A DNA stretch of 64,000 nt from Nanobdellota archaeon (GTDB lineage Archaea; Nanobdellota; Nanobdellia; Pacearchaeales; GW2011-AR1). The notes below the pieces were generated by a model. That model searched no databases and had not been told where the DNA came from. It worked only from the letters and a program-made list of their open reading frames with translations. The stretch is taken from positions 4,597 to 68,596 of the forward strand of contig JAKLDD010000002.1 in NCBI GenBank assembly GCA_022703705.1, given 5' to 3'. The position numbers were made by a program, and so were the translations under genes. Positions within the stretch are counted from its first letter, which is position 1. The number at the start of each line of letters is the position of its first letter. Of this stretch, positions 19,438-62,302 are shown piece by piece.

Positions 19438-19461
19438 AATAATAATAATAATAATAATAAT
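19438..19461. repeat. (AAT)8 microsatellite
   Basis: Read directly from the sequence. Confidence 0.9.
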
Positions 19462-19690: not shown

Positions 19691-19764
19691 CTCTTAATTA
19701 GTGGTTATAATTCTTTATATAAGAAATACATTTTTTTCATCGATAATTTAATTAATTTTAAATT

Positions 19765-19788
19765 TTCCACAGGAAATAAACGTGTGAG
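19765..19788 (+). promoter_or_regulatory. ORB-like box 3: TTCCACAGGAAATAAACGTGTGAG
   Basis: Same dyad, 30 nt upstream of the cdc6 ATG. GAGGT SD-like element at 19806-19810. Confidence 0.55.
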
Positions 19789-19817
19789 ATAATGAAATTA
19801 AAACGCGAGGTTAAAAG

Positions 19818-26600: not shown

Positions 26601-27073
26601 AAGGAGTTGGATTTACTCACTCTACTAACAATTTTAATGAGGGGGTTTTGTGTTCTTCATATAAAAGACTTTTAACTATGCAAGATAAAGTAGGGCATCA
26701 AATGGAATTAGTAGAAAAACTTCGTTCTGTTGACACTGCAGATACTGCACGCCTTATTATTGATAGACATTTTATCAGGGATATTAGAGGTAATCTTAGA
26801 AAATTTTCAATGCAAGAATTTAGGTGTGTTGCTTGTAATGAAATTGTAAGAAGGCCCCCTCTTGAAGGGGTTTGCCCGAAGTGTCGCGGAAAATTAATTT
26901 TTACAATTCATGAAGGGGGAATAAAAAAATATCTTGATTCGGCATTGGACTTGGCAAAAAAATATAATCTTTCTTCTTATTTGCAGCAAAATCTTGAACT
27001 TGTTAAAAGATACATAGATGCTGTTTTTGGTAAAGAATTGGAAAAGCAAAAAGCTTTAGCAGATTATTTTTAA
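23621..27073 (+). CDS. DNA polymerase II (PolD) large subunit DP2
   Basis: 1150 aa. Motifs GRPVFGHPAKSGGFRFRYGR, ARMGRPEKA, IRRDCDGDEAA, and Zn fingers CEKCN..CESC and CVACN..CPKC. Confidence 0.93.
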   Translation: MNTQEYFENLKKEIDKIYLIAEKARAKGYDPANEVEIPLAMSMAEKVVGLISTIYPQMKNSGIAERILELEKEYGKLDTTIVFKIAEEVAKQKFCKFKDLLESMDAGIRVGFAYATLGVVSSPIEGFTGLKIRKTRNNQEYIEASFSGPIRSAGTTASCIVLILIDYLREIFGFAKYDPTEEEIKRMYSEMEHFHERVANLQYMPTEKEANFLAKNLPIQIAGDASEKIEVPNYKNLERVDTNYLRSGFCLIIGEGLAQKAAKGFRLLNISKKNGIKSTGFDFLEEYIKIHEKRAKGKKDETPVYMKDLVAGRPVFGHPAKSGGFRFRYGRGRVSGFSATSLHPATMAITDDFIAIGTQLKLEKPTKGCVATVCDSIEGPIVKLFNGSVKKLNSLEEAKLIYPDVDEIIYLGDILFPFSDVLNRNAQLIKPGYVEEWWKLDLMEKNNLEKIDCFNISLDKAIELSENYSIPLHPKYIFYWTELSKEYFLDLIDWLIVSKYDKKIIFPYNKTEREKFKLGKRALELLGIEHQVTLENVVLNEITSKALLLNLGINIPHEEFLFKELIFKEKYLLDKNVLEIINSVSNFKIKDKAGEFIGARMGRPEKAKLRKLIGGPNVLFPVGKEGGRLRSFQAACGEGEVFGSFPIYYCEKCNQETIYPICESCENKCKKMYYFPELKEKAFVKIKEGIEKGGVPYMNKRINIQHYFESAIKKLGYSKEQIPPLIKGVRGTSSENHSIENFAKGMIRAKYNLQVNKDGTIRFDATELPITSFKPKEIFVGVEKLRELGYDKDIFGNELINEDQILELLPHDVLLPISSDSLDEKADDIFFKVSKFVDEELEKFYGLGKFYDLKEKQDLVGQIGVCMAPHNCAGVVCRFIGFSNTQGLFASPYMHAAIRRDCDGDEAAVMLLGDVLINFSREFLPSHRGGTQDAPLVLNAKIDAGEVDDQILDFEFLNEYPIELYRFSEEKRHSSEVKLNTVKEILKKGEDPFKGVGFTHSTNNFNEGVLCSSYKRLLTMQDKVGHQMELVEKLRSVDTADTARLIIDRHFIRDIRGNLRKFSMQEFRCVACNEIVRRPPLEGVCPKCRGKLIFTIHEGGIKKYLDSALDLAKKYNLSSYLQQNLELVKRYIDAVFGKELEKQKALADYF

Positions 27074-39576: not shown

Positions 39577-40086
39577 ATGGGAATGTTTATTTTTGAAAGT
39601 CCGATTTTAGTAAATTTTGTATATCCTTTTTTCTTGATTTTTTTTGTTTTGTTTGCTGTTCTTGATAGGACTAAAATTTTTGGGGAGGAAAAAAAGCAAA
39701 TTAATGCTCTTGTGGCATTTATTGTAGCATTTATTTTTGTAAGTGCTGTTTTTCCGAAAGTAATTGTCAGTAATTTAATTTTATTTTTGGCAATCGCTTT
39801 AATTGTGGTTTTTATTGTTCTTTTACTTTGGGGATTTGTTATGGGGGGAACTAGTCTTAATATATTTGAAAATTCTAAACCGGGATTTAAAATTTTTGTA
39901 GGGGTTTTAATTTTGGTGGGAGTCACAATTGCTGTTCTTTGGGCAGCGGGAGTTGATACTGGTGGACTTCTAGGAAAATTATTCAATTCTGATTGGAGTG
40001 AATCATTTTGGACAAATGTTTTATTTTTTGTTTTAGTTGCAATTGCTTTGGCAGTTATGTTAAGAACAAGTGGAACTAAGAAATAA
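39577..40086 (+). CDS. polytopic membrane protein, family member 1 of 4
   Basis: 5 TM. Motif FFVLFAVLDRTKIFGEEKKQINALVAFIVAFIF is shared with 40169.., 50459.. and 51103... Confidence 0.6.
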   Translation: MGMFIFESPILVNFVYPFFLIFFVLFAVLDRTKIFGEEKKQINALVAFIVAFIFVSAVFPKVIVSNLILFLAIALIVVFIVLLLWGFVMGGTSLNIFENSKPGFKIFVGVLILVGVTIAVLWAAGVDTGGLLGKLFNSDWSESFWTNVLFFVLVAIALAVMLRTSGTKK

Positions 40087-40168
40087 TTTGATTATCCTAA
40101 TTTAAATCGCTTTATGCCCCAATTAAATAATACGAAACATATTTAAATAATATTTAATAAAATATAAT

Positions 40169-40789
40169 ATGATAGAGGGGTTGATTACACTTGCATCTTT
40201 TGGTTCTTTTGGGGGGGGTGCAATTGGAGAATTATTTGCTCAGTGGGAGGCACAAGGAATTTTTGAATATCTGCTTCCATTTCTTCTTATATTTGCATTA
40301 GTGTTTGGGCTTTTAATGAGGTTAAATATTTTTGCAACTAGTCATGGAAATGAAGTTAATCAAAATAAAGGTATAAATGCAATAATAGCCTTGGCTGTTT
40401 CTTTACTGGCTTTACAGTTCAATGTTGTTTCTTTATTTTTTGCAGAGATTTTTCCAAGAATGGGTATTGCTTTAGCAATAATTTTAATTCTTTTAATTTT
40501 AGGTGGCTTATTCATACCAACGAATAAAAAAAATAACTGGTTTATGGTTGTTCTTGTAATTCTTGTTTTTGGAATTGTAATAACAGTAGTATATTCTTCT
40601 ATGAATGCAATGGGCTGGGGATTTTTTAGTAGCGGAGGATTTTCTTTCTTTTGGAGACAATATGGAGCTCTAATAATCTTCCTTGCAATTGTCATTGCAG
40701 TTGTGGCAACAACAAGCATTAAACCAAATAAGGATAGGCCAGAAGTGGAAAATGTTCTTTCAAGAATTCTCGGCGGGTCTTCTTCTTAA
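40169..40789 (+). CDS. polytopic membrane protein, family member 2 of 4
   Basis: LIFALVFGLLMRLNIF...INAIIALAVSLLAL; ~6 TM. Confidence 0.6.
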   Translation: MIEGLITLASFGSFGGGAIGELFAQWEAQGIFEYLLPFLLIFALVFGLLMRLNIFATSHGNEVNQNKGINAIIALAVSLLALQFNVVSLFFAEIFPRMGIALAIILILLILGGLFIPTNKKNNWFMVVLVILVFGIVITVVYSSMNAMGWGFFSSGGFSFFWRQYGALIIFLAIVIAVVATTSIKPNKDRPEVENVLSRILGGSSS

Positions 40790-40812
40790 TTACTTTTTTA
40801 ATTTTTAAAAAA

Positions 40813-41514
40813 TTATTTTGAAGCACGTCTTTTCTTTGAATTTGCTTCGTGCAATCTTGGAACTATTTTTTCAAAAGAATCTTGCATCATTTCCATTTCA
40901 CTTTTTATTGATTCCAAATTTTTTCCATATGAACCTATTTTTTCAAGAATAGCTATCTGTAATTTGTCAATTATTATCTCTATTCTTTTTATTCTTTCAT
41001 GATTATTGCTTATTTTTGTTTCAGCAAGAGTTGCAAATTCATTTAAAGCTTCAATTTGCTTTTGCTCTTTTTTAATTTTCTCAGAAAAAACTTGCTCTGC
41101 AATTTCTATAAATGTGTCAGAATTATATCCTGTTTCTTGAGATTCTACATATCCTTCTTGGGGGTAATATTCTTCGCTAGAATTCTGTGGAGAATATTCC
41201 TCGCTAGGGTATTCCTCGTATGCGGGTGGATTTTCTATTATTGGGGCAGAATATACTTCTTCTGGAGAATTTACCATCTCTTTACTTTTTGGAGTATAAA
41301 AACTTTGGAAGGTTTCTTCATTTTTTTTATTTGGCAATGGTGAAGGAACGTCCATCTCTTCATTTTCAGGGACAATAGCATTTTTTATACTTAGTCTATT
41401 AAAAGCATCATCAATTGTTTTTGGAGTAAGTCCTTTTTCTTGCAGAACTCCCGAAATTTCCCTGTCTCCCATTCCCTGATTACGCATATTTATTATCTCC
41501 TCTAAAATCCTCAT
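40813..41514 (-). CDS. HTH-like N-domain / acidic Tyr-Pro-Glu linker / coiled-coil protein (233 aa)
   Basis: N-terminus MRNQGMGDREISGVLQEKGLTPKTIDDAFNRL, linker EEYPSEEYSPQNSSEEYYPQEGY, C-terminal coiled coil. Confidence 0.6.
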   Translation of the reverse strand: MRILEEIINMRNQGMGDREISGVLQEKGLTPKTIDDAFNRLSIKNAIVPENEEMDVPSPLPNKKNEETFQSFYTPKSKEMVNSPEEVYSAPIIENPPAYEEYPSEEYSPQNSSEEYYPQEGYVESQETGYNSDTFIEIAEQVFSEKIKKEQKQIEALNEFATLAETKISNNHERIKRIEIIIDKLQIAILEKIGSYGKNLESIKSEMEMMQDSFEKIVPRLHEANSKKRRASK

Positions 41515-41540
41515 GGTTATTATATGTTTTTATTTGTTTT

Positions 41541-41900
41541 TTAATTTTTCTGCCCCTTTGAAAATCTTATATTTTCTAAATCTTTTCTTGTTAAGAAGTC
41601 CAATGGTTGGAACATTTTTGCTTGCTTTGAAAGAATTTCCAAATCTTCTTTTCTGGCAAATTTTGAAACTTCCCCAGAAATACTTTCCAGAAAGCTTTTC
41701 ATTCTTTCCAAATCCCTTTTTATTATTTCTATTTCTTTTTTTATTTCCAAAAATGATTGGGAGAATTCTTCTTTAAACTCAATCATATTCTGCCCAATTA
41801 AAAGAACTCTATCTTTGAGGATTCTTTGTTTTTCTTCTAAATCCCTAACCTTTGTGCTTGTTTCAGTAAAAAAAGAATTTTCATACTCTTGCCCTTCCAT
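41541..41900 (-). CDS. coiled-coil protein (119 aa)
   Basis: Start at MEGQEYE (ATG 41900), ~25 nt downstream of a TATA-like ttttatattt on the minus strand. Divergent from the pilus ATPase gene. Confidence 0.55.
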   Translation of the reverse strand: MEGQEYENSFFTETSTKVRDLEEKQRILKDRVLLIGQNMIEFKEEFSQSFLEIKKEIEIIKRDLERMKSFLESISGEVSKFARKEDLEILSKQAKMFQPLDFLTRKDLENIRFSKGQKN

Positions 41901-41977
41901 AATATATAAATATAAAAAGAGTTTAAATTTGTTTGGATTATACAAAATAATTTAAAGTCCAAATGGTTTTTTTCTGA

Positions 41978-44266
41978 ATGGAATTTGAAAGTGAAGAGGG
42001 GATTTATTCTTATGAAATAAAAAGAGAAGGTGGAGAAGATATAATCTACATTAATTATATTGGGGCGCCTTATGTTCCAAGCATTTCAGAGTATCCAGAA
42101 GTTATGGAAAGAACAATTGACGTTTTAATAGAAAATCCAAATGTTTCTAGAATTGTTTTTGTTCAGCAAAAAAATTACAATTATGATTTTAATGAAACAA
42201 GTTATCTTTTAGAAATTGCCCAGTTGTATGTTTCTTTATTAAAGCAGGAAAAAATTCTTTCCCAAGAAAAACTTGTAACAATAAAACCCGAGTTTTTTTC
42301 TAAAAGATATAATCAAATATTTTCTTTTTTATATCTCCTTAAAAAAGATCCTCTTGCAGCATATTCTCAACTCAAAAAAATAATTATTGAAGAAAAAATC
42401 CTTTTAGAAAAAATTGAAGATTCTATTAAACCAGATCAAAAAAACTATCTTTCTCTTCTTGAAAAAATTTCTAATCTTGTTGTTAAAACAAAAATTTTCC
42501 AAGAGGCAGCACCATATCTTGAGAATTATCATAAGGGGGAGAGAGAAATTTATTTTAAAATTTTTAAACCAGATGTTATTGCAAATTTTACTTTTACTAG
42601 AATGGTTTCTGATTTGCCTTCAGATGCAGAGATTATAGATCAGTATGAAATTTCAAATGGGGAATATGACAAATCCCTAGTAACTATTTTGAAGAGAAAA
42701 GATGAATCAAAACTTCTGTATCACTTGGTTCCTCCAGAAAATGTTTTAAGTGAAGACCATAATATTTTGCTTAATTTAGCAAGAAGTGTTTTAATTGAAC
42801 ATCAGCCAAAAGCAGAAGAGTTTACAGACACAGAGAGAATTAGGCAAGTTTTTTTGAATATCTCTAAAGATTTACTTAGGGATTTAGCTCAAAGCAAGGG
42901 AATTAAATTGGATTATTCTTCATTAAATATGCTTTCTTCCATATTAGTTCGACATACAATTGGTTTTGGAATTATAGAAATTCTCCTACAAGATAAAAAG
43001 CTTCAAGATATTTTTTTAAACTCCCCTATTCCCCAGACGAATATATTTGTTATTCACCAAGAATATGATGAATGTTTTACAAATATTCTTCCAAGCCAGG
43101 AAGATGCAGATTCTTGGGCTGCAAAATTTAGGATGCTTTCGGGAAGGCCCCTGGATGAATCCAATCCCATTTTAGATACTCAACTTGAAGTCGGAAATCT
43201 TCGTTCAAGAATTTCAGTAATTCAGCAACCCCTTTCTTCTGATGGATTAGCATATGCTATTAGAAGACATAGAGAAAATCCATGGACTCTTCCACTTTTT
43301 ATTCAAAATAAGATGATAAATCCCTTTGCAGCAGGATTAATGAGTTTTTTAATTGATGGTTCAAGAACTCTTTTAGTTGCAGGAACAAGAAGCTCAGGTA
43401 AAACTTCTTTACTTGGAAGTTTAATGCTAGAAATTGTTCCCAAGCATAGGATTATAATAATAGAAGATTCTCTTGAACTCCCTGCCGAATCTCTTAGAAA
43501 ATTAAATTATAATGTGCTCAGAATGAAAGTTCGTTCTGCATTGCTTAAAACAACCACAGAAGTTTCTGCTGATGATGGTATAAGAACAAGTTTAAGATTA
43601 GGGGATAGTTGTTTAATTATTGGAGAAGTTAGAAGTGTTGAGGCAAAAGCTCTTTATGAAGCAATGAGAGTTGGGGCTTTAGCTAATGTTGTTGCAGGAA
43701 CAATACATGGGGCTTCTCCTTATGGGGTTTTTGACAGAGTTGTAAATGATTTAGAAGTTCCAGCGACCAGTTTTAAGGCAACAGATTCTATTATAATCTG
43801 CAATCCAATAAAATCTCCGGATGGATTACATTCTTGGAAAAGAATGCTTCAGCTTACAGAAATTAGAAAACATTGGAAAAAAGATCCTATGCTTGAAAAT
43901 GGATTTGTAGATTTGCTTAAGTATAATGTAGAAAAAGATGAACTTGAACCAACAGAAGATTTAATCAATGGAGATAGTGAAATAATCAAGGATGTGGCTG
44001 CAAATGTAAGGGGGTGGGCAGGAAATTGGGATGCAGTTTATGATAATATTTTGCTTAGAGCCAAAATAAAAAAAGAACTTTTTGAAACAGCTAAAAAAAT
44101 AGGAGATTTTAATATTTTGGAATCAAAATTTAATACGCTTTCTAATCATACTTTTCATAGAATCTCTGATGAAATAACCCAAGAAGTGGGATTGCCTTCT
44201 AGTGAAAGAGTATTTCCAGTTTGGCAGGAATGGTTAAATAAAGAGATTAAAAAAAGAAAAATTTAG
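41978..44266 (+). CDS. type II/IV secretion-family ATPase (FlaI/PilB/GspE-like) with ~400-aa N-terminal extension (762 aa)
   Basis: Walker A LVAGTRSSGKTSLLGS, Walker B/Asp box RIIIIEDSLELP, IIGEVRSVEAKALYEAM, His box AGTIHGAS. Confidence 0.88.
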   Translation: MEFESEEGIYSYEIKREGGEDIIYINYIGAPYVPSISEYPEVMERTIDVLIENPNVSRIVFVQQKNYNYDFNETSYLLEIAQLYVSLLKQEKILSQEKLVTIKPEFFSKRYNQIFSFLYLLKKDPLAAYSQLKKIIIEEKILLEKIEDSIKPDQKNYLSLLEKISNLVVKTKIFQEAAPYLENYHKGEREIYFKIFKPDVIANFTFTRMVSDLPSDAEIIDQYEISNGEYDKSLVTILKRKDESKLLYHLVPPENVLSEDHNILLNLARSVLIEHQPKAEEFTDTERIRQVFLNISKDLLRDLAQSKGIKLDYSSLNMLSSILVRHTIGFGIIEILLQDKKLQDIFLNSPIPQTNIFVIHQEYDECFTNILPSQEDADSWAAKFRMLSGRPLDESNPILDTQLEVGNLRSRISVIQQPLSSDGLAYAIRRHRENPWTLPLFIQNKMINPFAAGLMSFLIDGSRTLLVAGTRSSGKTSLLGSLMLEIVPKHRIIIIEDSLELPAESLRKLNYNVLRMKVRSALLKTTTEVSADDGIRTSLRLGDSCLIIGEVRSVEAKALYEAMRVGALANVVAGTIHGASPYGVFDRVVNDLEVPATSFKATDSIIICNPIKSPDGLHSWKRMLQLTEIRKHWKKDPMLENGFVDLLKYNVEKDELEPTEDLINGDSEIIKDVAANVRGWAGNWDAVYDNILLRAKIKKELFETAKKIGDFNILESKFNTLSNHTFHRISDEITQEVGLPSSERVFPVWQEWLNKEIKKRKI

Positions 44267-44280
44267 ATTTTTTGAAATTT

Positions 44281-44540
44281 ATAATTCTCCAAAGATTTAT
44301 TAATTATGGGGTTCTTTTAAGAAAAGAACCTACAATGGTAGAAAATGGGTTTCTTTTTAGAAAAAAGAAACTACAATAGTAGAAAAACTAAAATAGAAAA
44401 GAACTTACAATGATAGAAAACGGGGATTTAGAAAATCCTACGATGGCAAAAGAAAAAAACTACAAAACTAAAAATCTACAAGGGTAGAAAAAACTAAAAT
44501 AGAAAAGAACTTACAATGATAGAAAATAAAGAGGAGAAAA
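44281..44540. repeat. intergenic repeat/hairpin array: six CTACAATGGTAG-like motif sites (four as full ~24-nt units AAAAGAAMYTACAATRRTAGAAAA, two divergent) and three short perfect hairpins
   Basis: Hairpins at 44310-44330, 44349-44371 and 44424-44438, each with a 3-nt loop. A ~42-nt direct repeat occurs at 44379-44420 and 44484-44525. Read directly from the sequence. Confidence 0.8.
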
Positions 44541-46745
44541 ATGTCTGATTATACAAAACCCAGTGTTGATGAAATTCTTAGAAAATATGGAAAAAAGATA
44601 GAAGGTCAAATTAAAACTACTGAATTTGGAAAAATTAATGACAGCAAATCTTATTTGAAGTTTAAAGAAGAACGTTCTAGAAATTTAATAAATTATGAAC
44701 GATGGTGCAAAACCCTCGGCAACATAATAAAACTTAAGGCTTCTAAAAAAGATGAAGAAAATATAAACAAATACATAAAAATTGCTCATTTGGATATTGA
44801 ACCCGGTCAAGCAATAACTTTAAGTGTTATGTCTTTTATTTCAGTTTTCTTTTTAGGGCTGATAATTTCAATAGCAATTTCTCTTATAAATTCTGGCGAG
44901 ACAGGAGGATTTGGCTCTTTTCCAGTTTTATTTTTCTTTTTAACAACAATTCTTTCTTTTTTTCTTTTTTATTATATTAATGGTTATCCTGAAAGATTAG
45001 CAAACAAATGGAGATTGAAAGCTTCAAGTCAGATGGTGCCTGCAATTTTGTATGTTGTTATTTACATGAGGCATACTTCTAATCTTGAAAAGGCAATTGA
45101 ATTTGCTTCTGAACATTTGCAATATCCTCTTGCATTGGATTTTAAAAAAATATTTTATGATGTTGCAATTGGAAAATTTTCAACAATTAAAGAAAGCTTA
45201 GACAATTATCTTGAAAATTGGAAAGATTATTCAATTGAATTTATAGAATCCTTTCATCTTATTGAAAGCAGTTTATTTGAGCCAAGTAAATCCAGAAGAA
45301 TTGCAAGTCTGGAAAAATCTTTACAAATTATTCTTGATGGAGTTTATGAAAAAATGCTTAAATTTACCCACGATGTTAAAGCTCCACTTACAAATATTTA
45401 CATGCTTGTAATTATGCTCCCAATACTGGGAATTGCATTAATCCCTCTTGCATCTGCTATGCTTCAAGGAATGATAAAATGGACACATATTTTTATTCTT
45501 TATAATTTGATTCTTCCTTTTCTTGCATTTTTTATGATGGACAAAATTCTTCTTTTAAGACCAGGAGGATATGGGGAAACATCTTTCCTTGAAAAAAATC
45601 CGCTTTATCCTCAGTATAAATCCAAAAAACCCTATCTTTGGGCATTTTTTATTTGCTTTCCTTTATTAATAATTGGATTAATTCCTTTAATCTTTCAATT
45701 TACTCCTATTCCTGGAATTTTAGGTGTTCCTTCTGATCCCACTTTTGGAGATTTAGGATTATCAAATCTTGGAATAGATTTTTTGGATGCACTTTCAAAT
45801 ATTAAAATTTTTGATTTTACAAAAATAGATTCTAAAATTGTTGGACCATTTGGACCTATGGCATTATTTTTAAGTTTATTTTTTCCTCTGGGAATTGCAT
45901 TGTTTTTTTCTATTGGAGCAAAAGATAGAACAATTAATTTAATAGAAGAGAGAAAAAAAACAAAACAATTGGAATTGGAATTTAACAGTTCCTTATTTCA
46001 ATTAGGAAATCGTTTGGGCAACAATGTTCCTTCTGAACTTGTTTTTGGTAAAATTGCAGAATCTTCAAAGGGATTAGCATCTGGAGATTTTTTTAAGAGA
46101 GTAAATTATAATATTCAACAGATGGGTATGAGTGTTGAAAAAGCAATTTTTGATTCAAGACGAGGAATTCTTCTTTATTATCCTTCAGATTTGATTTCAA
46201 CAAGCATGAGGGTTTTAATTGAATCTTCTAAAAAAGGATTAAAAATTGCAGCAGTTAGTTTAATGAGCATTTCAGAATATGTCAAGAATATTGAAAAAAT
46301 AACTTCAAGATTAAAAGATATGTTAGCAGAAGTAATTTCTGAAATGAAAAGCAATATGACTTTTCTTGCACCATTGCTTTCCGGAATTGTTGTTTCTCTT
46401 GCATTAATGATTACTTCTATTTTAAGTTATTTAAGTTTTGAAGGAATCGGTGGAATTGATTTTGGTGGAATTGATGCAGATATGATAAATGGGTTATTTG
46501 ATAAACTTTCTATGATTCCCCCATATTATCTTCAGATTATAATTGGAGTATATTTAATACAAATTATTTTTATTTTAACAGGAACTTTGGTTACAATAGA
46601 TTCTGGAGAAGATGGGCTGGAAAAAACAAGTAGAATCGGGCAAAATCTTAAGAAAGGAATCACATTTTATTTTATAACTGCACTTATTGCTTCTTTAGCT
46701 TTGTTTGTATTAACAACAGTAGTTTTAGGAAGCTTGGGCACTTAA
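44541..46745 (+). CDS. PilC/FlaJ/TadC-like polytopic platform protein (734 aa)
   Basis: Position after the ATPase. Two cytoplasmic helical modules resemble T2SSF repeats (AIEFASEHLQYPLALDFKKIFYDVAIGKFSTIKESL and LGNNVPSELVFGKIAESSKGLASGDFFKRVNYNIQQMGMSVEKAI), each followed by TM clusters. Confidence 0.6.
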   Translation: MSDYTKPSVDEILRKYGKKIEGQIKTTEFGKINDSKSYLKFKEERSRNLINYERWCKTLGNIIKLKASKKDEENINKYIKIAHLDIEPGQAITLSVMSFISVFFLGLIISIAISLINSGETGGFGSFPVLFFFLTTILSFFLFYYINGYPERLANKWRLKASSQMVPAILYVVIYMRHTSNLEKAIEFASEHLQYPLALDFKKIFYDVAIGKFSTIKESLDNYLENWKDYSIEFIESFHLIESSLFEPSKSRRIASLEKSLQIILDGVYEKMLKFTHDVKAPLTNIYMLVIMLPILGIALIPLASAMLQGMIKWTHIFILYNLILPFLAFFMMDKILLLRPGGYGETSFLEKNPLYPQYKSKKPYLWAFFICFPLLIIGLIPLIFQFTPIPGILGVPSDPTFGDLGLSNLGIDFLDALSNIKIFDFTKIDSKIVGPFGPMALFLSLFFPLGIALFFSIGAKDRTINLIEERKKTKQLELEFNSSLFQLGNRLGNNVPSELVFGKIAESSKGLASGDFFKRVNYNIQQMGMSVEKAIFDSRRGILLYYPSDLISTSMRVLIESSKKGLKIAAVSLMSISEYVKNIEKITSRLKDMLAEVISEMKSNMTFLAPLLSGIVVSLALMITSILSYLSFEGIGGIDFGGIDADMINGLFDKLSMIPPYYLQIIIGVYLIQIIFILTGTLVTIDSGEDGLEKTSRIGQNLKKGITFYFITALIASLALFVLTTVVLGSLGT

Positions 46746-46784
46746 TTTAGTAAATTTTATTAAGGGAGATTTATATATTAAAAT

Positions 46785-46943
46785 ATGAAAAATATGAGAA
46801 AAAAAGGGGTTATAATGGATTATCTTCCTTGGATAATTCTTGCTGTTTTGGTTTTAGTAATTTTATTCATATCAATTTTTGTAATTAAAGATACTGGGAT
46901 AGGTTTTTTGGATAAAATAAAATCTCTATTTAGGGAGAATTAA
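46785..46943 (+). CDS. micro-protein (52 aa) with possible class III signal peptide (RKKG|VIMDYLPWIILAVLVLVILFI)
   Basis: Hand-translated. The stop overlaps the next ATG (TAATG). Confidence 0.4.
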   Translation: MKNMRKKGVIMDYLPWIILAVLVLVILFISIFVIKDTGIGFLDKIKSLFREN

Positions 46944-47107
46944 TGGAAATAACAATTGGAAATATAATAAAGATAATTTTAGCAGTTTTAGTTGTAGTGG
47001 CTGTCGCATATGGATTGTATCGTTTTTTTAGTAATTCAGTTATAAGTCATTTTAAAAATATTGGAATTGGAAATACTTCCATTGAACTCTGGATGAGTTT
47101 GTTATAA
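46943..47107 (+). CDS. micro-protein (54 aa), single TM
   Basis: MEITIGNIIKIILAVLVVVAVAYGLYRFF..; tightly packed between neighbouring genes. Confidence 0.35.
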   Translation: MEITIGNIIKIILAVLVVVAVAYGLYRFFSNSVISHFKNIGIGNTSIELWMSLL

Positions 47108-47108
47108 G

Positions 47109-47567
47109 ATGAATAAAAAAGGTTTTTTGCTTGCAGAAGAAACTTTGAAAGTTTTAATTGCTGCAATTTGCATTGTTTTTTTGATTTTCTTGATAATTAC
47201 AGTTTATAATTTTATTACTGGGGAAAAGAAAACTAAACAAGCAGAAGAAAATCTGAATAGAATCGATGAGATTATTGCTTCTCTTGAAAATGAAGAAAGT
47301 GAAAATCAAGATGTTTCAAATCCAGAAGGGTGGCACTTAATGAGTTTTGTTAATGAAGAAACTCCAAAATCATGTGCAGGCATTAATTGTTTATGCATTT
47401 GTAGTAAAGCAGTTATTAAATCGCAGGTTGAAAAATGTGATAAAAAAGGAAGTTGCATAATTTTCCCAAATTTGGCGGGTGGAAAAGTTAACATAAAAAT
47501 TAAACAGCCTACAGTTTTGACTATTCTGAAGCATGAAGGAAATATTTTCATAGGAGAAGCTTTCTAA
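47109..47567 (+). CDS. pilin-like protein with class III signal peptide (MNKKG|FLLAEETLKVLIAAICIVFL), Cys-rich
   Basis: K/R-G cleavage motif, Glu at +5, hydrophobic helix, and 7 Cys in the C-terminal domain. Confidence 0.7.
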   Translation: MNKKGFLLAEETLKVLIAAICIVFLIFLIITVYNFITGEKKTKQAEENLNRIDEIIASLENEESENQDVSNPEGWHLMSFVNEETPKSCAGINCLCICSKAVIKSQVEKCDKKGSCIIFPNLAGGKVNIKIKQPTVLTILKHEGNIFIGEAF

Positions 47568-47568
47568 A

Positions 47569-47670
47569 ATGAATTTAGATGAATTTTTAAAATACGCTGT
47601 TTGGATTGTTTTTTTTGGAATTGCTTTAGTTGGAATTTATTTTTTATTGAGGAGGTTGGGAATTGTTTAA
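47569..47670 (+). CDS. micro-protein (33 aa), single TM
   Basis: MNLDEFLKYAVWIVFFGIALVGIYFLLRRLGIV*. It contains the GGAGG SD for the next gene. Confidence 0.3.
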   Translation: MNLDEFLKYAVWIVFFGIALVGIYFLLRRLGIV

Positions 47671-47671
47671 T

Positions 47672-48682
47672 ATGAGAAAATTATTTAATAGAAAAAAAAA
47701 TAAAAAAGGAGAACTGACAACAGAACAGATTGTTGGTTTAACAATCCTTATAGCTAGTTTTGTTATTTTAATTATATACATAGCATACATGCAGTTTAAT
47801 AAACAAACGAATGATGAAGCTTGCCGTGCTTCTGTTGTTTTAAGGGGGGGAATTGGAGAAACAACTCCTTTAAGTTGTCAGAGAGAGTTTGTTTGTATTA
47901 CTCAAGATGGAAGCTGTGAGGGAATGTCTAAACCTGAGATAAAAAAAGTTAAAACAGAGTATGAAGTTTATGATGTTTTGGCTGAAGAAATGAGAGATTG
48001 CTGGTTGATGTTTGGAGAAGGAAATATTAATTATGTTAAAGATAGATTGACAAGACAAAATTTATGCTCAATTTGCGACCAGATTTTTTTTGATAATAGT
48101 GTTAAAAATGTTAAAGGTTTTTCCGGAACATCTGAAATTTATCCTTTTGCTAATGGAAAAATAAACAAAGATGAATTTTATAAATATCTTTCAGCAAATA
48201 AAATGCCTGATAGTGATAAAGATTTGACTTATTCCCAATATATTTTTAATGTAGATAATTTTGATGATTTAAAAAGCGGGCTTTCAAGTAATGCAGGAAA
48301 ACAAGTTACATTTGGAACAATTGAAATTGAAAAAAATTATCTTATTGTTATGGGTATTACAACTGAAGTTAATGATATCACTTGGGCATTGGGGGGAGCA
48401 GTTATTGTTGGAGCAGGAGTGCTTACAGCAGGATTTATTTATGTTCCTCTTTCAGTTTTAGCTATCCCTGGCGTGGTTTTTTCAGGAGTTCTTGTGGGAG
48501 AAGCTGCAGGGGGTGCAATTGGGTTGGGGGCAAAAGAGATTTCTGAATTATTTTCCCCCGAGATAAATGCAATATTAGTGGAAGGTGGTGAAGTTGAAAA
48601 TAAATTCATGGCCCCTACAATAGTAGAAGCAGATTCAAATAAATTTAAGTTTCTTGAATGCAAAGAAATTATTTCTGGTTAA
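47672..48682 (+). CDS. pilin-like N-terminus (KKNKKG|ELTTEQIVGLTILIASFVILII) + Cys-rich domain + C-terminal Gly-rich TM pair (336 aa)
   Basis: ATG at 47672 follows a GGAGG; the track start at 47663 is TTG. C-terminus WALGGAVIVGAGVLTAGFIYVPLSVLAIPGVVFSGVLVGEAAGGAIGLGA. Confidence 0.65.
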   Translation: MRKLFNRKKNKKGELTTEQIVGLTILIASFVILIIYIAYMQFNKQTNDEACRASVVLRGGIGETTPLSCQREFVCITQDGSCEGMSKPEIKKVKTEYEVYDVLAEEMRDCWLMFGEGNINYVKDRLTRQNLCSICDQIFFDNSVKNVKGFSGTSEIYPFANGKINKDEFYKYLSANKMPDSDKDLTYSQYIFNVDNFDDLKSGLSSNAGKQVTFGTIEIEKNYLIVMGITTEVNDITWALGGAVIVGAGVLTAGFIYVPLSVLAIPGVVFSGVLVGEAAGGAIGLGAKEISELFSPEINAILVEGGEVENKFMAPTIVEADSNKFKFLECKEIISG

Positions 48683-48731
48683 ATTATTCTTTAAAAGATA
48701 ATTTTATTAACAATCTTTCTTTCTTGTTATT

Positions 48732-49181
48732 ATGAAAAAAAAACAAAAAAAGAGGAATTTTTTTAATTTCAATTTTTTTAAAAAAAATAGAAAGGGGACA
48801 TTATTGATTGAGAATGTTATTTATATTATTTTAAATGGGGTGTTTCTTTTTGCTCTTGCTTTATTTTTAATTAAGCAAGGTTCTGGCGCAATTGTTTTAG
48901 AGCAAGCATATTCAAAAGAAATTGCTTTAATTGTTGATTCTGCACAACCATTAATGTTAATAAAAATAGATCTGGATAAAGGAAAAAAAATTGCAGAAGA
49001 AAATGGGATTAATTTTAAAGAAATTGTAAAAATAGATGAAAATATTGTTAGTGTAAAATTAAGTAACAATGGCGGATATAGTTATTCTTTTTTTAATGAC
49101 ATGGATGTTAAGGCATATCCTGAAGTAAATGAACAAAATGAATATACTGGAATGTATATTATTACTATAAACGAAAAATAA
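48732..49181 (+). CDS. pilin-like protein (NRKG|TLLIENVIYIILNGVFLFALALFLI)
   Basis: Class III signal pattern with Glu at +5. Confidence 0.65.
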   Translation: MKKKQKKRNFFNFNFFKKNRKGTLLIENVIYIILNGVFLFALALFLIKQGSGAIVLEQAYSKEIALIVDSAQPLMLIKIDLDKGKKIAEENGINFKEIVKIDENIVSVKLSNNGGYSYSFFNDMDVKAYPEVNEQNEYTGMYIITINEK

Positions 49182-49189
49182 TAATTAAA

Positions 49190-49756
49190 ATGAGAAATAA
49201 AATAAAACACATAATAAAAGAAAAAAGAGGGGCAGAAAAATATTTGTCTCTTTACTGGTTTTTTATTTTAATGTTAATTGCTTTGGGGGTTTTTATAATG
49301 ACTTATAATTATTATGGTGCCCCTTATGATATAAGAAAAGTAGAATCAGAAATATTGGCAAATAAAATTGCAGATTGCATTTCAAATCAAGGAAGAATAA
49401 ATCCTGATTTTTTTATTGAAAAAAATTTGAATTCGGCAATTTCAGATACTTTTCTTGAAAAGTGTAAAATTAATTTAGATGTTGAAGAAGGATACCCCGA
49501 GGATTCTCTTCCCCCTTACTTTTTTGAAGTTGAATTTTATAGAATAGAGGATGTATCTAAGTCTGCTCTTACAATATTTGAAGGTAATTTAAATTTGAAA
49601 GCAGATTGTCTTATTAATGAAGAAAATAATAAAAATTTTAGAGTGCTTTCAAAATGCACAGAGAGAAGGTTTTATGCTGTGGATGATTCTTCAAATCAAT
49701 ATTTAATTAAAATATTATCATCTGTAAAGAAAAATGAAAAAAATATTAAGATATAA
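49190..49756 (+). CDS. pilin-like protein (KEKRG|AEKYLSLYWFFILMLIALGVFIM)
   Basis: Class III-like signal; 5 Cys. Confidence 0.6.
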   Translation: MRNKIKHIIKEKRGAEKYLSLYWFFILMLIALGVFIMTYNYYGAPYDIRKVESEILANKIADCISNQGRINPDFFIEKNLNSAISDTFLEKCKINLDVEEGYPEDSLPPYFFEVEFYRIEDVSKSALTIFEGNLNLKADCLINEENNKNFRVLSKCTERRFYAVDDSSNQYLIKILSSVKKNEKNIKI

Positions 49757-50087
49757 TAAAAATTGTAAGGCTCAAATAGGAGAAACTTTAACTTGGGTAA
49801 TTGCAACCTTAATTATTGCTTTGATTTTGGTTGCATTCATTATTGCTTCTGCTACTTTGGGCAAAGCCAAGAATTTGACATCAAGCAGGAAAGTGGAAAT
49901 TGGAGATTCAAAAATAGATTTAATAAAAACAAAAACAGAAATTGCGTATACTATTAATAATGAAAATAAAAGTAAAATTGAGGGGTGGATTGCTTTGGAA
50001 AATTTCTTTGAGAAGGAAAATTCGGTTGATTTTGAAGGTTATGGAGGAGGAGATGCTGGCGGTGGAGGAGCAGGAAATGAATGGTAA
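49734..50087 (+). CDS. pilin-like protein (NCKAQ|IGETLTWVIATLIIALILVAFII) with Gly-rich C-terminus
   Basis: KAQ-type cleavage motif. C-terminus GYGGGDAGGGGAGNEW. Overlaps both neighbouring genes. Confidence 0.55.
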   Translation: MKKILRYNKNCKAQIGETLTWVIATLIIALILVAFIIASATLGKAKNLTSSRKVEIGDSKIDLIKTKTEIAYTINNENKSKIEGWIALENFFEKENSVDFEGYGGGDAGGGGAGNEW

Positions 50088-50382
50088 AATAATAAACAAA
50101 AGAATGAATAAAAGAGGAGATTTGCCTGTAACTATACTTGTTATTGGTGTTCTTGTTGTTTGCACACTTGCATTTGTTAGTTTTTTGCATTCTTCTTCCA
50201 AAGTTGGAAAAGTTTTTCAGGGAATTGATTTAATAGAAGAAGCAAATGCAAAAATAGAAGCAGGAAATTTAGACACTTTTTATATTGAAAAAAAAGTAAA
50301 TAAATTTTCCCCCAGTTTTGAAGGGGAAGATTTTTCTTGGAAAAAAGAAAAAATTATTCTTTCAGTAGAATATAACCCTTAA
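50077..50382 (+). CDS. pilin-like protein (MNKRG|DLPVTILVIGVLVVCTLAFVSFL)
   Basis: Start at MNGK (50077) or MNKRG (50101). The track ORF 49942.. has a spurious N-terminal extension. Confidence 0.6.
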   Translation: MNGKIINKRMNKRGDLPVTILVIGVLVVCTLAFVSFLHSSSKVGKVFQGIDLIEEANAKIEAGNLDTFYIEKKVNKFSPSFEGEDFSWKKEKIILSVEYNP

Positions 50383-50458
50383 TTTATTTTTTGGATTTAA
50401 TTTTAATGGAATATTAAAAACCAATAAAGTTTATAAATGCTTTAATCTTTTTGAATAA

Positions 50459-51061
50459 ATGAAGTTTGAAGTAAAGAGGTTTATGCTTGCATTGTTTTTT
50501 GCATTGTTCATATTTAGTTTATTTGGAAGTTTAAATTTGATTTCTGCTGCAGAACCATCTAATTCTGGAGGAGATACAACATATAATTTTTATAATGATA
50601 GAATTGTTAATACAGACGAAGGGGCAGGGAAAATTCTTGGGTTTTTGAATTTAACAGGAACTTGGAGAGAAATACTTTTAGGATTTCTTATTTTATTAAT
50701 AATATTTGCAGCAATGTATGATATTTTGCAACTTATTTCTATTTTTCAAAGTAAGTGGGTTATTCTATTAATTGCTTTTGCAATTGCTCTTGCAGCAGCT
50801 TTGACTAATTTTGTTCATAAAATGGCAGTATTGCTTACACAGATTTTAGCTGGATTAGGAGCAGCAGCAATCTTTGTTGAAATCGCAATATGCATAGTTA
50901 TTTTTGTTGGATTATCCTTTGGAAGTACCTGGATTGGAAAATGGGCTGCAAAAAGAAAAGGGAATGTAGAAGAGATTAAAGCAATAAAGAGTGCTGGACA
51001 AGCTAAAGCAGCTATAAGAGGAATGAGAGAGATACAGGAAGAATTTAGAAGAAAAAGTTAA
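50459..51061 (+). CDS. Sec-signal polytopic membrane protein, family member 3 of 4
   Basis: Signal ..SLNLISA|AEP. Motif FAAMYDILQLISIFQSKWVILLIAFAIALAAAL. Basic cytoplasmic tail. Confidence 0.65.
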   Translation: MKFEVKRFMLALFFALFIFSLFGSLNLISAAEPSNSGGDTTYNFYNDRIVNTDEGAGKILGFLNLTGTWREILLGFLILLIIFAAMYDILQLISIFQSKWVILLIAFAIALAAALTNFVHKMAVLLTQILAGLGAAAIFVEIAICIVIFVGLSFGSTWIGKWAAKRKGNVEEIKAIKSAGQAKAAIRGMREIQEEFRRKS

Positions 51062-51102
51062 ATCTCTATAAAATTTAAAAAGTCTTTTTAATTGTTTATT
51101 GC

Positions 51103-51762
51103 ATGGTGTTAAAAAAGAGAAATTTTTTTAAATTATTTTTTGTAGTATTTTTTATCTGGATTTTTTTAGCGCAGATTTCAATTTTATCTGCAGATTTAAC
51201 AACAGATATTGCAAATGGAGATGCTGATTATCTTACAGATTCAAGCAAATGGAGTAATTTAACTCAGAATTGGAAGCAGGGTATTCTAAGCACAGGAGTT
51301 TTTTCTGGAATTGATTCTTTTTTTAAAAAATTAAATCCTTTTTTTTCAGTTATTTTTGGAGACCCTTATAGTTTATCGTTTTTTTTCTTTTTTGTGCTTG
51401 TGCTTTGGTTTTGGTTTTTTGCTCAATTTAGAAAATTATTAGGAATGACTCTTTTTTCAAAATGGGTTGTATTGCTTATTGGATTTGCTCTTACAATTAT
51501 GGTTGCCCAACTGGGATTATTTAGGGGGCTTTCAAGTCTTTTTGTTAGAATAATATTTATTCCAAATAAGCCTTGGTTAGGAATTGTATTTTTCTTTTTG
51601 ATAATTTTTATTTTATCATTTATATCAAGATTAGGTAAAATGATTGAAAAAAAGTTGAAAAAGAGCAGGGAAGATTTGGAAAAAGAAAAAGAGAAAATAA
51701 ACAGAAAAACGTTGAGCACAATTACAGACTCTGCCAGCAAGATGTTTTTGAGAGATAAATAA
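51103..51762 (+). CDS. Sec-signal polytopic membrane protein, family member 4 of 4
   Basis: Signal ..ISILSA|DLT. Motif FFAQFRKLLGMTLFSKWVVLLIGFALTIMVAQL. Charged coiled tail. Confidence 0.65.
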   Translation: MVLKKRNFFKLFFVVFFIWIFLAQISILSADLTTDIANGDADYLTDSSKWSNLTQNWKQGILSTGVFSGIDSFFKKLNPFFSVIFGDPYSLSFFFFFVLVLWFWFFAQFRKLLGMTLFSKWVVLLIGFALTIMVAQLGLFRGLSSLFVRIIFIPNKPWLGIVFFFLIIFILSFISRLGKMIEKKLKKSREDLEKEKEKINRKTLSTITDSASKMFLRDK

Positions 51763-51821
51763 GAAATATTTATAAACGCAACTTTGCTTTATAATTTATA
51801 AATAGCAGAAAAATAAAAGAG

Positions 51822-52154
51822 ATGACAATGAAAAACAAAAAAGCACAGGAGATGAGCACAGGGGCAATTGCATTAATAATTCTTGCAGTAATAGTATTGG
51901 TTGTTTTAGTTTTGGGATTTAGCATGGGGTGGGATAAAATTATTCCTTGGTTAAAATCAAATAATATAGAATCAGTAAGAACTGCTTGTTCTATTGCATG
52001 CACTACTGGGGGAACTTATGATTTTTGCAGTGCTCAAAGAGATATTAAAGACGGGACTCTTGATAAATATAAATCAACTTGCAATCAATTAGTCACAAGT
52101 CATCCTGAATATGGAATAGAGCTTTGCCCTTCTATAACTTGTCCTTCTTCTTAA
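51822..52154 (+). CDS. candidate major pilin (KNKKAQ|EMSTGAIALIILAVIVLVVLVLGF), 6 Cys, own promoter
   Basis: TATA-like tttataaa at 51795-51802 fits a leaderless start at the second ATG (51828). Small (108-110 aa), with a Cys-rich globular part. Confidence 0.65.
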   Translation: MTMKNKKAQEMSTGAIALIILAVIVLVVLVLGFSMGWDKIIPWLKSNNIESVRTACSIACTTGGTYDFCSAQRDIKDGTLDKYKSTCNQLVTSHPEYGIELCPSITCPSS

Positions 52155-52163
52155 TAATTTAAA

Positions 52164-52286
52164 ATGTCCTCTGATTATTCTTCTGGTTGCGAAAAGAGAA
52201 ATAAAGGCAAGAGCAAACGCAAGGAAAAGAAAAAACACCCGTATTCTAAGGGTGGAAAGCATAGAAGTGCTAATATAAAGAAGTGA
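52164..52286 (+). CDS. highly basic 40-aa peptide (hypothetical)
   Basis: Hand translation: MSSDYSSGCEKRNKGKSKRKEKKKHPYSKGGKHRSANIKK*. Locally less AT-rich than the flanks. Confidence 0.3.
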   Translation: MSSDYSSGCEKRNKGKSKRKEKKKHPYSKGGKHRSANIKK

Positions 52287-52320
52287 TTAGTTTTATAAAA
52301 TATCTTTTCTTTTTATTTGA

Positions 52321-53148
52321 ATGATAGAGGTGATTTTTTTAATTGCTCTTGGATTAATATGGATTATTTTTGCAGTTTTGCAAGACTTAAAAAAAAGGGA
52401 GATTGCTAATTGGCTTAATTTTTCACTTATAATTTTTGCGCTTGGATTTCGTTTTTTTTATTGTTTATTTTCTGGAACTGATTTTAATTTTTTCTATTAT
52501 GGATTAATGGGATTTGCAATTTTTTTTATTTTAGGGAATGTATTTTATTATAGTAAAATCTTTGCAGGGGGAGATGCAAAATTAATGATTGCTCTTGGGG
52601 GGGTTCTTCCTTTAACCGGAACTATTAATGGAAATCTTAATCTATTTCTTATCTTTATACTTCTTTTTTTAATTGTGGGAGCAATTTATGGATTTTTATT
52701 TAGTGTTATTCTTGTAATAAAGAATTTTAAAAAGTTTAAAAAAGAATTTTTAAAGAATTTTTCAAAAAATAAAAAACTCTTTTATTTGGCACTTGTAATA
52801 TGTGCGATATTAATTTTTGTTTCTTTTTTCTTAGAATTAGTAATTTATCTTGCAGTTATTGCTTTTATTTTCCCTTATCTTTATTTTTCAGCAAAATCCT
52901 TAGATGAGACGTGTATGATTAAAGAAATTTCTACTAAAAAACTAACCGAAGGGGATTGGCTTTATCGCGGAGTAAGAGTAAAAAATAGGTTCATAAAATA
53001 TACATGGGATGGATTGACTAAAGAAGAAATACAAATCCTAAAAAAAACAGACAAAAAAGTTTTGATAAGGCAAGGAATTCCATTCAGTCCAGTATTCCTT
53101 ATAGCATACCTTGTTTGGTTTTATTTTTTTATTAGAACTTTTTATTAA
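52321..53148 (+). CDS. prepilin/preflagellin peptidase (A24 family, PibD/FlaK-like)
   Basis: First Asp context AVLQDLKKREI, second Asp motif FAGGDAKLMIALGG; polytopic. Confidence 0.85.
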   Translation: MIEVIFLIALGLIWIIFAVLQDLKKREIANWLNFSLIIFALGFRFFYCLFSGTDFNFFYYGLMGFAIFFILGNVFYYSKIFAGGDAKLMIALGGVLPLTGTINGNLNLFLIFILLFLIVGAIYGFLFSVILVIKNFKKFKKEFLKNFSKNKKLFYLALVICAILIFVSFFLELVIYLAVIAFIFPYLYFSAKSLDETCMIKEISTKKLTEGDWLYRGVRVKNRFIKYTWDGLTKEEIQILKKTDKKVLIRQGIPFSPVFLIAYLVWFYFFIRTFY

Positions 53149-62209: not shown

Positions 62210-62302
62210 AGCCCCATAGTACAGTGGTCAAGTATACGGCCCTTTGGTGTTATTAAGTAATGGAGAAAGGCCGGGACCTCGGTTCGAATCCGAGTGGGGC
62301 TA
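62210..62302 (+). tRNA. tRNA-Gln (anticodon TTG at 62244-62246) with a 20-nt intron at the canonical 37/38 position (62248-62267)
   Basis: Hand-folded: acceptor AGCCCCA/TGGGGCT (A1-U72, typical of archaeal tRNA-Gln), D-arm GTAC AGTGGTCAA GTAT, anticodon stem CGGCC/GGCCG interrupted by tgttattaagtaatggagaa, T-arm CTCGG TTCGAAT CCGAG. Confidence 0.85.

Follow-up and report, generated by a model that had tools for sequence, protein, structure and literature searches.

A type IV pilus-like locus of a Pacearchaeales archaeon with a distinctive set of pilin-like and accessory genes

Does an archaeon of the Pacearchaeales carry the genes for a surface filament and, if so, is the filament of a kind that has already been described? 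This question is raised by a locus at positions 39577-53148 of a 64,000-nucleotide stretch of DNA from this lineage (contig JAKLDD010000002.1; the whole stretch is called the window), which an initial annotation had described as type IV pilus (T4P)-like. We consider it probable that this archaeon, a member of the DPANN, encodes here a complete machine for assembling a type IV filament (T4P-like). An ATPase, a platform-like partner, a peptidase and a set of prepilin-like proteins are all present, and their homologues are named as belonging to Pacearchaeota, Woesearchaeota or Nanoarchaeota. The T4P-like designation stands. The kind of machine is a known one; its pilin and accessory repertoire is new.

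The open reading frames (ORFs) are those of the earlier list, with three starts slightly corrected (Table 1). Relatives were surveyed with one genome per GTDB species, among which at least 244 species encode a relative of the ATPase. Gene order was compared in 40 Pacearchaeales species loci with full flanks, in which the components were sought by tblastn.

Components of the assembly machine

The ATPase matches Pfam T2SSE (53.6 bits, cutoff 24.9), and none of its four motifs, Walker A (residues 468-477), Asp box (496-502), Walker B (546-553) and His box (573-580), varies among 82 homologues, in keeping with its earlier description as a 762-residue FlaI/PilB-type ATPase that carries Walker A, Asp and His boxes. 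Among NCBIfam models the top match is FlaI (124.6 bits, equivalog cutoff 550), with TadA close behind (120.7 bits) and both far below their cutoffs, and the model of the bindosome ATPase BasE reaches 58.7 bits against a cutoff of 1000. The best match among PDB sequences is GspE of Archaeoglobus fulgidus (afGspE; 2OAP, 89.5 bits), followed by CpaF (85 bits) and FlaI (56 bits). Residues 214-603 align with residues 25-392 of 2OAP, and the protein can be divided into an N-terminal extension (~1-200), an N-terminal domain (~214-440) and the ATPase domain (~440-700). Because the alignment with 2OAP begins at residue 214, the unassigned extension measures about 200 residues and not the ~400 first proposed. 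The N-terminal 282 residues found no relative among PDB sequences. Likewise, the ATPase and the platform protein are not unusually large, as had been thought, since their nearest non-DPANN relatives are equally long (695-917 and 649-676 residues, respectively).

Homologues of the ATPase form 4,324 clusters; in the best 120 the identity is 77-100% and the length almost always exactly 762 residues. An identical sequence is on deposit as a protein of a Candidatus Pacearchaeota metagenome-assembled genome (MAG), and some homologues are named FlaI by the Joint Genome Institute (JGI). The best 80 of the ATPases from at least 244 GTDB species are 73-85% identical and carry the names Pacearchaeota, Woesearchaeota or Nanoarchaeota.

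The 734-residue product of the next gene had been called a PilC/FlaJ-like polytopic protein. Its length and polytopic nature hold, and its likeness to this family comes from a predicted fold, the sequence tests with T2SSF having failed. No match was found in Pfam, NCBIfam or PDB sequences with the single sequence, its halves or two profiles (A1 and A3), nor by tblastn against plasmids, and an internal-repeat test of its two cytoplasmic domains was not significant. A first AlphaFold2 model, built from Pacearchaeales sequences only, was too poor to use (predicted local distance difference test, pLDDT, 56), and its Foldseek match to EpsF was weak. A second model on an alignment of 51 sequences (A4), to which Thermoplasmatota had been added, reached a pLDDT of 79 and a predicted TM-score (pTM) of 0.77. 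It matches the cytoplasmic domains of Vibrio cholerae EpsF and Dickeya dadantii OutF in Foldseek (probability 0.96-0.99, TM-score 0.62-0.72, root-mean-square deviation ~3 Å). The modeled protein has about nine transmembrane (TM) helices and two cytoplasmic helical domains, as in FlaJ/TadC.

Platform homologues form 3,887 clusters. Identity lies at 65-93% in the best 120; Pfam recognizes a domain in none of them, and JGI gives the name TadB to some. In a Thermoplasmatota relative (locus L085) the ATPase gene adjoins a gene for a 675-residue protein of the same family (hhalign probability 100%, E 4e-41), which itself has 449 family members, again without Pfam domains. This platform family (44541-46745 in the window, 12096-14123 in L085, 11498-13447 in a further locus, L088) thus has 3,887 plus 449 clusters without a Pfam domain in Pacearchaeales, Thermoplasmatota and Methanosarcinales, and represents a coverage gap of PF00482 (T2SSF).

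The last gene of the locus encodes the A24 prepilin peptidase that had been proposed: it matches Pfam Peptidase_A24 (43.4 bits), and its catalytic residues D22 and D85 (GGDAKL) do not vary among 33 orthologues. The NCBIfam FlaK model scores 38 bits, below its cutoff. Of the Pfam and NCBIfam profile searches for the core genes, those for T2SSE and Peptidase_A24 gave matches above cutoff, and that for T2SSF gave none with the 734-residue protein.

Between the platform and peptidase genes lies the set of pilin-like genes. When all six frames of the window were scanned for [KR][GAS] ahead of a strongly hydrophobic 16-mer, nine consecutive plus-strand ORFs were found within 46785-52154, and elsewhere the hits were scattered and mostly in non-coding frames. 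In eight prepilin candidates [KR]-[GA] precedes a hydrophobic helix some 20 residues long, and these motifs are kept in the orthologues of other species (Table 1), which bears out the earlier count of eight ORFs with class III signal-like N-termini. Glu at +5, reported for several of them, occurs in the window proteins p152 (G↓FLLAE), p149 (G↓TLLIE) and p339 (G↓ELTTE), with Gln in its place in p339 orthologues. Phe+1 and Glu+5 of p152, together with Glu+5 of p149, are a bacterial-type signature. The observation that several candidates are rich in cysteine was also sound: conserved cysteines number seven in p152, eight in p339, four in p188 and six in p110, with none in p149, and these conserved numbers suggest disulfide-stabilized extracellular domains. 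The least conserved pilin-like protein is p339 (38% identity), a candidate tip or adhesin subunit, and p149 is a candidate structural pilin.

The smallest products are real genes as well. All three micro-ORFs that had been noted, of 52, 54 and 33 residues, recur with their position and length kept in most of the 40 loci, and the orthologues of p33 always have 31-35 residues. Mature p52 would have about 44 residues, forming a helix with a short amphipathic tail and no globular domain. The proteins p54 (MELTIENLIK and a TM helix) and p33 have a pilin-like hydrophobic N-terminus and no leader, and they are related to each other (hhalign probability 91.7%).

Neither the pilin-like nor the accessory proteins belong to any Pfam or NCBIfam family. 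Among the pilin-like proteins two matches below threshold were seen, one between p117 and Arch_flagellin (18 bits, cutoff 29.5; 1 of 44 pilin-like sequences) and one between p152 and the NCBIfam model ComGE (E 0.011). Some N-termini resemble motifs of known pilins. The sequence G↓DxPVTxLVIGV of p92 may resemble the N-terminal motif of PilA, with no Pfam pilin match in any pilin-like protein; Gln+1 after Ala in p117 and p110 recalls EppA substrates; and G↓xxxEY of p52 is one residue short of the Flp motif, G↓xxxxEY.

Upstream of the ATPase gene are two membrane protein genes, mem1 and mem2, and two genes on the minus strand, cc1 and cc2. The products of mem1 and mem2 are paralogues (hhalign probability 99.7%, E 4e-27), and mem1 has no Pfam family. 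An earlier proposal of four paralogous polytopic proteins therefore holds for these two and fails for mem3 and mem4, whose kinship with mem1 and mem2 or with each other is unsupported (hhalign probability 0.1-35%). The BLASTP values of 1e-4 to 1e-5 that had suggested it lacked composition correction, and the proteins are hydrophobic. None of the 40 species loci has mem3 or mem4, which were found only in the closest relative (locus L087, 18183-19509; ATPase 91% identical), where a gene for a 200-residue protein occupies the mem3 position. The two genes are a lineage-specific insertion between p92 and p110.

The product of cc1 has a small N-terminal domain, an acidic linker rich in Pro, Glu and Tyr and a C-terminal coiled coil, with no hydrophobic segment, and its matches to Pfam are of coiled-coil type and below threshold. 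It has no detectable relation to cc2 (hhalign probability 1.3%). Both divergent coiled-coil genes, as first annotated, are nearly constant companions of the ATPase gene (39 of 40 loci).

Gene order, distant relatives and a working model

Comparison of neighborhoods across related genomes reveals an invariant gene order in about 40 other Pacearchaeales species that have enough flanking DNA. The lower counts of some genes in Table 1 probably reflect how long the flanks are and how small some of the proteins are. Median identity is 76% for the ATPase, 65% for the platform and 38-51% for the pilins, and cc2 is 63% identical across loci. The corresponding values for neighboring genes are 69% (Hef helicase), 64.5% (RPA-like protein) and 54% (EF-1beta). 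The motor is thus as conserved as its housekeeping neighbors or more so, which implies strong purifying selection. The genes for Hef, an M50-like protein, a PRC protein, a HIT protein and EF-1beta are also syntenic in Pacearchaeales.

Beyond this order, relatives of the ATPase fall into two groups. Those that align over the full length, N-terminal extension included, have 726-785 residues and are 35-66% identical, and the named ones come from uncultured DPANN-like archaea. Others align only from residues ~155-235 on, and these include proteins of Methanocella (744 residues), Methanolobus zinderi (839), Methanosarcina (917), Hadarchaeales (695) and Thermoplasmatota (739). Residues ~1-200 are common only to the DPANN relatives, and mem1, mem2, cc1 and cc2 co-occur with them. 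In Methanolobus the ATPase adjoins a platform protein of 649 residues that is of the same family as that in the window (hhalign probability 100%, E 3e-115), with no pilins nearby.

A distant DPANN locus (L083) has an ATPase 45% and a platform 34% identical to those in the window. It keeps three mem paralogues, with mem2 homologues at E ~2e-7, and homologues of cc1 and cc2 on the opposite strand (a 282-residue protein for cc1, hhalign probability 98.3%, and a 154-residue protein for cc2, 92.9%). The class III signal peptide (SPIII)-like proteins downstream are different and much larger, and the housekeeping neighbors also differ. It is therefore the motor with its mem and cc scaffold that stays together, and the set of pilins can be exchanged. 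The M50-like and PRC-barrel genes upstream were considered as parts of the system and rejected, since they are absent from this distant locus. PRC-barrel proteins have other known roles.

A working model can be put together from these components. The A24 peptidase would cut behind the [KR]-[GA] motif and so remove the short basic leaders, and the hexameric ATPase, docked on the platform and driven by ATP, would extract the mature pilins from the membrane. The pilins would then stack through their N-terminal helices to form an extracellular filament. Its shaft would probably consist of one or two small subunits free of cysteine, p149 and/or the 44-residue p52, and the Cys-rich, faster-evolving p339, p152, p188 and p110 would probably form a priming or tip complex. 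Probably, mem1 and mem2 with cc1 and cc2 would serve as a lineage-specific scaffold around the motor that engages the N-terminal domain of the ATPase. Adhesion to a host or to surfaces, possibly combined with uptake, would be the likely biological role, the host-attachment or DNA/nutrient-uptake filament first proposed being a reasonable reading, and sequence cannot separate adhesion from an uptake pseudopilus.

Table 1. Genes of the locus, with the N-terminal motifs of the prepilin-like proteins (arrow, end of the leader) and the number of Pacearchaeales species loci, out of 40, in which each gene was found.
Gene	Position	Strand	Product	N-terminus	Loci
mem1	39577..40086	+	polytopic, 169 aa, ~5 hydrophobic segments; core accessory		39
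mem2	40169..40789	+	polytopic membrane protein, 206 aa; mem1 paralogue		39
cc1	40813..41514	-	cytoplasmic, 233 aa		39
cc2	41541..41900	-	small cytoplasmic coiled-coil protein, 119 aa		39
ATPase	41978..44266	+	762 aa, GspE/FlaI/CpaF superfamily		
platform	44541..46745	+	734 aa; GspF/PilC/TadC-like by predicted fold		40
p52	46785..46943	+	mini prepilin-like, 52 aa	KKG↓VI(S/M)(E/D)YLPW	37
p54	46943..47107	+	leaderless pilin-like micro-protein, 54 aa		25
p152	47109..47567	+	prepilin-like	K[KR]G↓FLLAEE	37
p33	47569..47670	+	leaderless single-TM micro-protein, 33 aa		32
p339	47672..48682	+	largest prepilin-like protein	KG↓E(L/I)TTQQIV	39
p149	48732..49181	+	prepilin-like	[KR]G↓xILVEN	38
p188	49190..49756	+	prepilin-like	KRG↓(A/T)(E/D)K.LS.YWF	37
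p117	49734..50087	+	prepilin-like; orthologues ~90 aa	KKA↓Q(V/I)GET.TW	22
p92	50104..50382	+	prepilin-like	K[KR]G↓D(L/I)PVT(I/V)LVIGV	31
mem3	50459..51061	+	Sec-signal membrane protein, 200 aa; lineage-specific insertion, outside conserved core		0
mem4	51103..51762	+	Sec-signal membrane protein, 219 aa; same insertion as mem3		0
p110	51822..52154	+	prepilin-like	KK[AG]↓QG(M/L)S	31
A24 peptidase	52321..53148	+	A24 prepilin (class III signal) peptidase, 275 aa		27

The corrections to the gene list concern p92, whose true gene is 50104-50382 (92 residues, MNKRG↓DLPV...), the 146-residue ORF at 49942-50382 being over-extended, and the likely ATG starts of p339 (47672) and cc2 (41900; the ORF runs on to a TTG at 41945).

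Several variants of the locus deserve mention. In some Pacearchaeales (L001 and L002, 12329-15912) an insertion of three genes separates ATPase and platform. It encodes proteins of 173 and 137 residues and an 870-residue GT4 glycosyltransferase, at the position of a 274-bp spacer in the window (44267-44540). This insertion may be linked to pilin glycosylation. Many ATPase homologues (P0241-P0245, P0249, P0253 and others) have 1,264-1,783 residues, with the match split into two or three stretches. In P0241 about 515 residues are inserted inside the Asp box, at the point matching D497/S498 of the window protein, and the junctions (...LED/S... and ...AHN/TLELP) look intein-like; the window ATPase has no intein. 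Finally, a contig of a MAG labelled "Bacillota bacterium" (L051, DATKUW010000085.1) carries the archaeal ATPase locus at 75% identity and is probably mis-binned.

The window as a whole has a G+C content of about 29% and contains archaeal housekeeping genes for Orc1/Cdc6, both PolD subunits, RadA, an RPA-like protein and EF-1beta. At 18-20 kb, immediately upstream of orc1/cdc6 (19818-21029), G+C falls to 21.8%. The orc1/cdc6 gene is followed by the small (21042-22664) and large (23621-27073) PolD subunits, and positions 18001-21029 are a candidate replication origin. At 62210-62302 ARAGORN calls a tRNA of 93 nt whose "anticodon" has four bases (tttg); this is probably an archaeal tRNA with an intron that the program misread. 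On the minus strand, 8031-10982 holds a HerA-like DUF87 ATPase (661 residues) and then small ORFs of 164 and 155 residues; another DUF87 gene is found in the Thermoplasmatota locus L085, just upstream of its ATPase.

Known filament systems and competing explanations

If the locus encodes a filament machine, which of the described systems does it resemble most? Makarova et al. (2016) divided the archaeal ATPases into four clades, of which clade 2 is euryarchaeal with a few Nanoarchaea included, and described clade 2 modules of ATPase and TadC without nearby pilins (PMC4858521). The Methanolobus pair without pilins corresponds to that arrangement. A recent preprint defines a System 2 by an ATPase extended at its N-terminus, a platform encoded by one gene, SPIII pilins accompanied by pilin-like proteins without SPIII, and membrane proteins, and treats extra ATPase domains as specific to subsystems, archaellum ATPases being described as lacking them (10.64898/2026.04.22.720090). 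The core architecture of the locus agrees with the description of System 2, and all of these features are shared with the euryarchaeal T4P, such as Haloferax PilB/PilC and the 2OAP protein. The best match to a solved structure (afGspE), the nearest named ATPases (Methanosarcinales, Methanocellales and Hadarchaeales) and the platform family shared with Methanolobus and Thermoplasmatota point the same way. Nevertheless, the locus differs from clade 2 and System 2 in several respects: the Pfam scan detects no PilA or other known pilin family; the 200-residue ATPase extension is found only in DPANN, and mem1/mem2 and cc1/cc2 lack a described counterpart; and all pilins are encoded in cis and in a fixed order. 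The claim that the accessory set is unlike the described archaeal T4P types is supported for the pilins and accessory proteins, which match no Pfam or NCBIfam family; the core fits the System 2 description.

Other systems share fewer features with the locus. Like the major pilin of the Epd pili of Methanococcus (System 1) and like Flp, p52 is very short and has no globular domain. However, two platform genes are the defining trait of System 1 (10.64898/2026.04.22.720090), which the single gene here, for 734 residues, does not fit. An archaeon with a long ATPase 43% identical to that in the window (locus L086) has a second T4P locus (412-4420, minus strand) with a 505-residue T2SSE ATPase and platform genes for 469 and 260 residues, both Pfam T2SSF, as in System 1 or 4A. 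These two lengths sum to 729 residues, near the 734 of the window's platform, and the split platforms are not detectably similar to it. With regard to Tad systems, the ATPase scores about as well with TadA/CpaF as with FlaI, but p52 and its orthologues match neither Flp_Fap nor Class_IIIsignal, and the locus has no TadZ, RcpA or secretin-type genes. The T4P of episymbionts from the Candidate Phyla Radiation (CPR, or Patescibacteria; for example Saccharibacteria) provide a functional analogy, in that T4P are conserved in a lineage that is ultrasmall and host-dependent, and the F+1/E+5 pilins of the locus are likewise bacterial-like. In those episymbionts the pili mediate host binding (PMC9894109, PMC11623550). 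Those systems, however, are built from bacterial PilB, PilC, PilT and PilD with a retraction ATPase, whereas the locus has a single ATPase of archaeal type and no PilT.

Some points weigh against our preferred interpretation, or against the novelty of the system, and are best considered together. The ATPase and platform belong to a module family that also occurs in Methanosarcinales, Thermoplasmatota and Hadarchaeales and, judged by description and nearest relatives, fit the euryarchaeal clade 2 or System 2 type. The assignment of the platform to the GspF/PilC/TadC type is supported by its predicted fold, gene context and the COG names given by JGI, and not by sequence: T2SSF matches only 9 of 51 family members, weakly (best E 0.036), and the platform profiles do not recover the two genuine T2SSF proteins of L086 (hhalign probability 0.6-5%; hmmsearch not significant), with the weak alignments being collinear with a fusion of the two L086 genes. 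A Pfam search with 44 pilin-like sequences found no Pilin_N, Class_IIIsignal, N_methyl or Flp_Fap, and no family recurs. By the FlaFind pattern, only p152, p339 and some p149 orthologues would be expected to pass, the rest being charged or unusual at +2 to +4. Finally, part of the synteny is general genome collinearity.

A bolder version of the filament interpretation may be entertained tentatively, namely that the locus represents a distinct DPANN-specific filament subtype. Here, a motor derived from clade 2 would have gained the 200-residue domain and the mem/cc scaffold and would work with unrecognized pilin families (bacterial-like F1/E5 pilins, a 44-residue pilin without a globular domain and leaderless micro-pilins) as a universal, essential organelle of host contact or uptake in Pacearchaeales. 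Among the papers that full-text searches returned, none describes this particular conserved set of genes. DPANN islands of T4P genes with "dark matter" pilins are mentioned in general terms (Makarova et al. 2019, PMC6393860), and a "Pilus type IV (FlaIJK)" is noted at the level of annotation in related DPANN MAGs (PMC8561730).

Alternatively, the same genes might build a short pseudopilus for uptake or secretion, like those of ComG competence, type II secretion or the Sulfolobus bindosome, in place of a long adhesive pilus. It would draw DNA or nutrients through the S-layer, or position binding proteins, in a nucleotide-auxotrophic organism. The many small subunits that look like minor pilins, several of them with Glu+5 as in bacterial pseudopilins and ComG, would suit this arrangement, as would the weak ComGE match of p152 and the lack of a large adhesin with binding domains recognizable by Pfam, and so extremely conserved a motor points to an essential task, for instance the acquisition of nutrients or DNA. 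However, the locus has no gene resembling the ComEC/ComEA channel and DNA-binding proteins and none for a substrate-binding protein, the BasE model scores far below its cutoff, and a pseudopilus needs the same components as a pilus. We regard this alternative as rather unlikely.

It is also conceivable, though very improbable, that ATPase, platform and peptidase alone constitute the system and that the small ORFs, mem and cc genes merely travel along in collinear genomes. The synteny of Hef, M50-like, PRC, HIT and EF-1beta genes is equally strong, and the presumed passengers have no family assignment. Yet eight consecutive proteins share an N-terminus of [KR][GA] and a helix that is rare elsewhere in the window and is conserved in orthologues, the small ORFs lie between the platform and prepilin peptidase genes, and the mem and cc homologues of L083 still adjoin the ATPase in spite of different housekeeping neighbors.

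The archaellum shares homologous core proteins with the locus (ArlI, ArlJ and PibD/FlaK for ATPase, platform and peptidase). As had been stated from the outset, archaellum and KaiC genes are absent: profile searches with Pfam and NCBIfam found no ArlB, ArlF, ArlG, ArlH, ArlCDE, ArlX or KaiC in any ORF of the locus, and neither ArlH (KaiC-like) nor ArlF/G among ten further large ORFs of the window. A reduced archaellum, that is, a rotary motility filament, might be read from the FlaI names given by JGI, the top NCBIfam match, the Arch_flagellin match of p117 and reports of fla genes in Woesearchaeota (PMC11606122), but we reject it as scarcely credible, given that the FlaI score lies far under the equivalog cutoff, that PDB FlaI ranks below afGspE and CpaF, that the ATPase carries extra domains, that archaellin, stator and ArlH families are missing, and that Arch_flagellin is matched by a single sequence, below threshold.

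Implications for Pacearchaeales and related lineages

Pacearchaeota and Woesearchaeota are abundant, uncultured and ultrasmall archaea, and the Pacearchaeota are probably host-dependent. A filament motor found across hundreds of species, and no less conserved than the housekeeping genes around it, is an obvious candidate for a surface organelle of these cells. Most of the system is invisible to standard annotation: Pfam has no family for the platform, for the ten pilin-like proteins or for the four accessory proteins. The genes provide targets for metaproteomics, antibodies and cryo-electron tomography, and profile models built from them could be added to classifiers of type IV filaments.

In a study of groundwater by cryogenic transmission electron microscopy, pili were used to call cells CPR on the ground that T4P components are "missing in DPANN genomes" (preprint 10.1101/2020.05.14.094862). 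The invisibility of these genes to annotation may explain that statement. If the locus does represent a distinct DPANN subtype, then filaments on ultrasmall groundwater cells would not be assignable to CPR on the ground that DPANN lack T4P.

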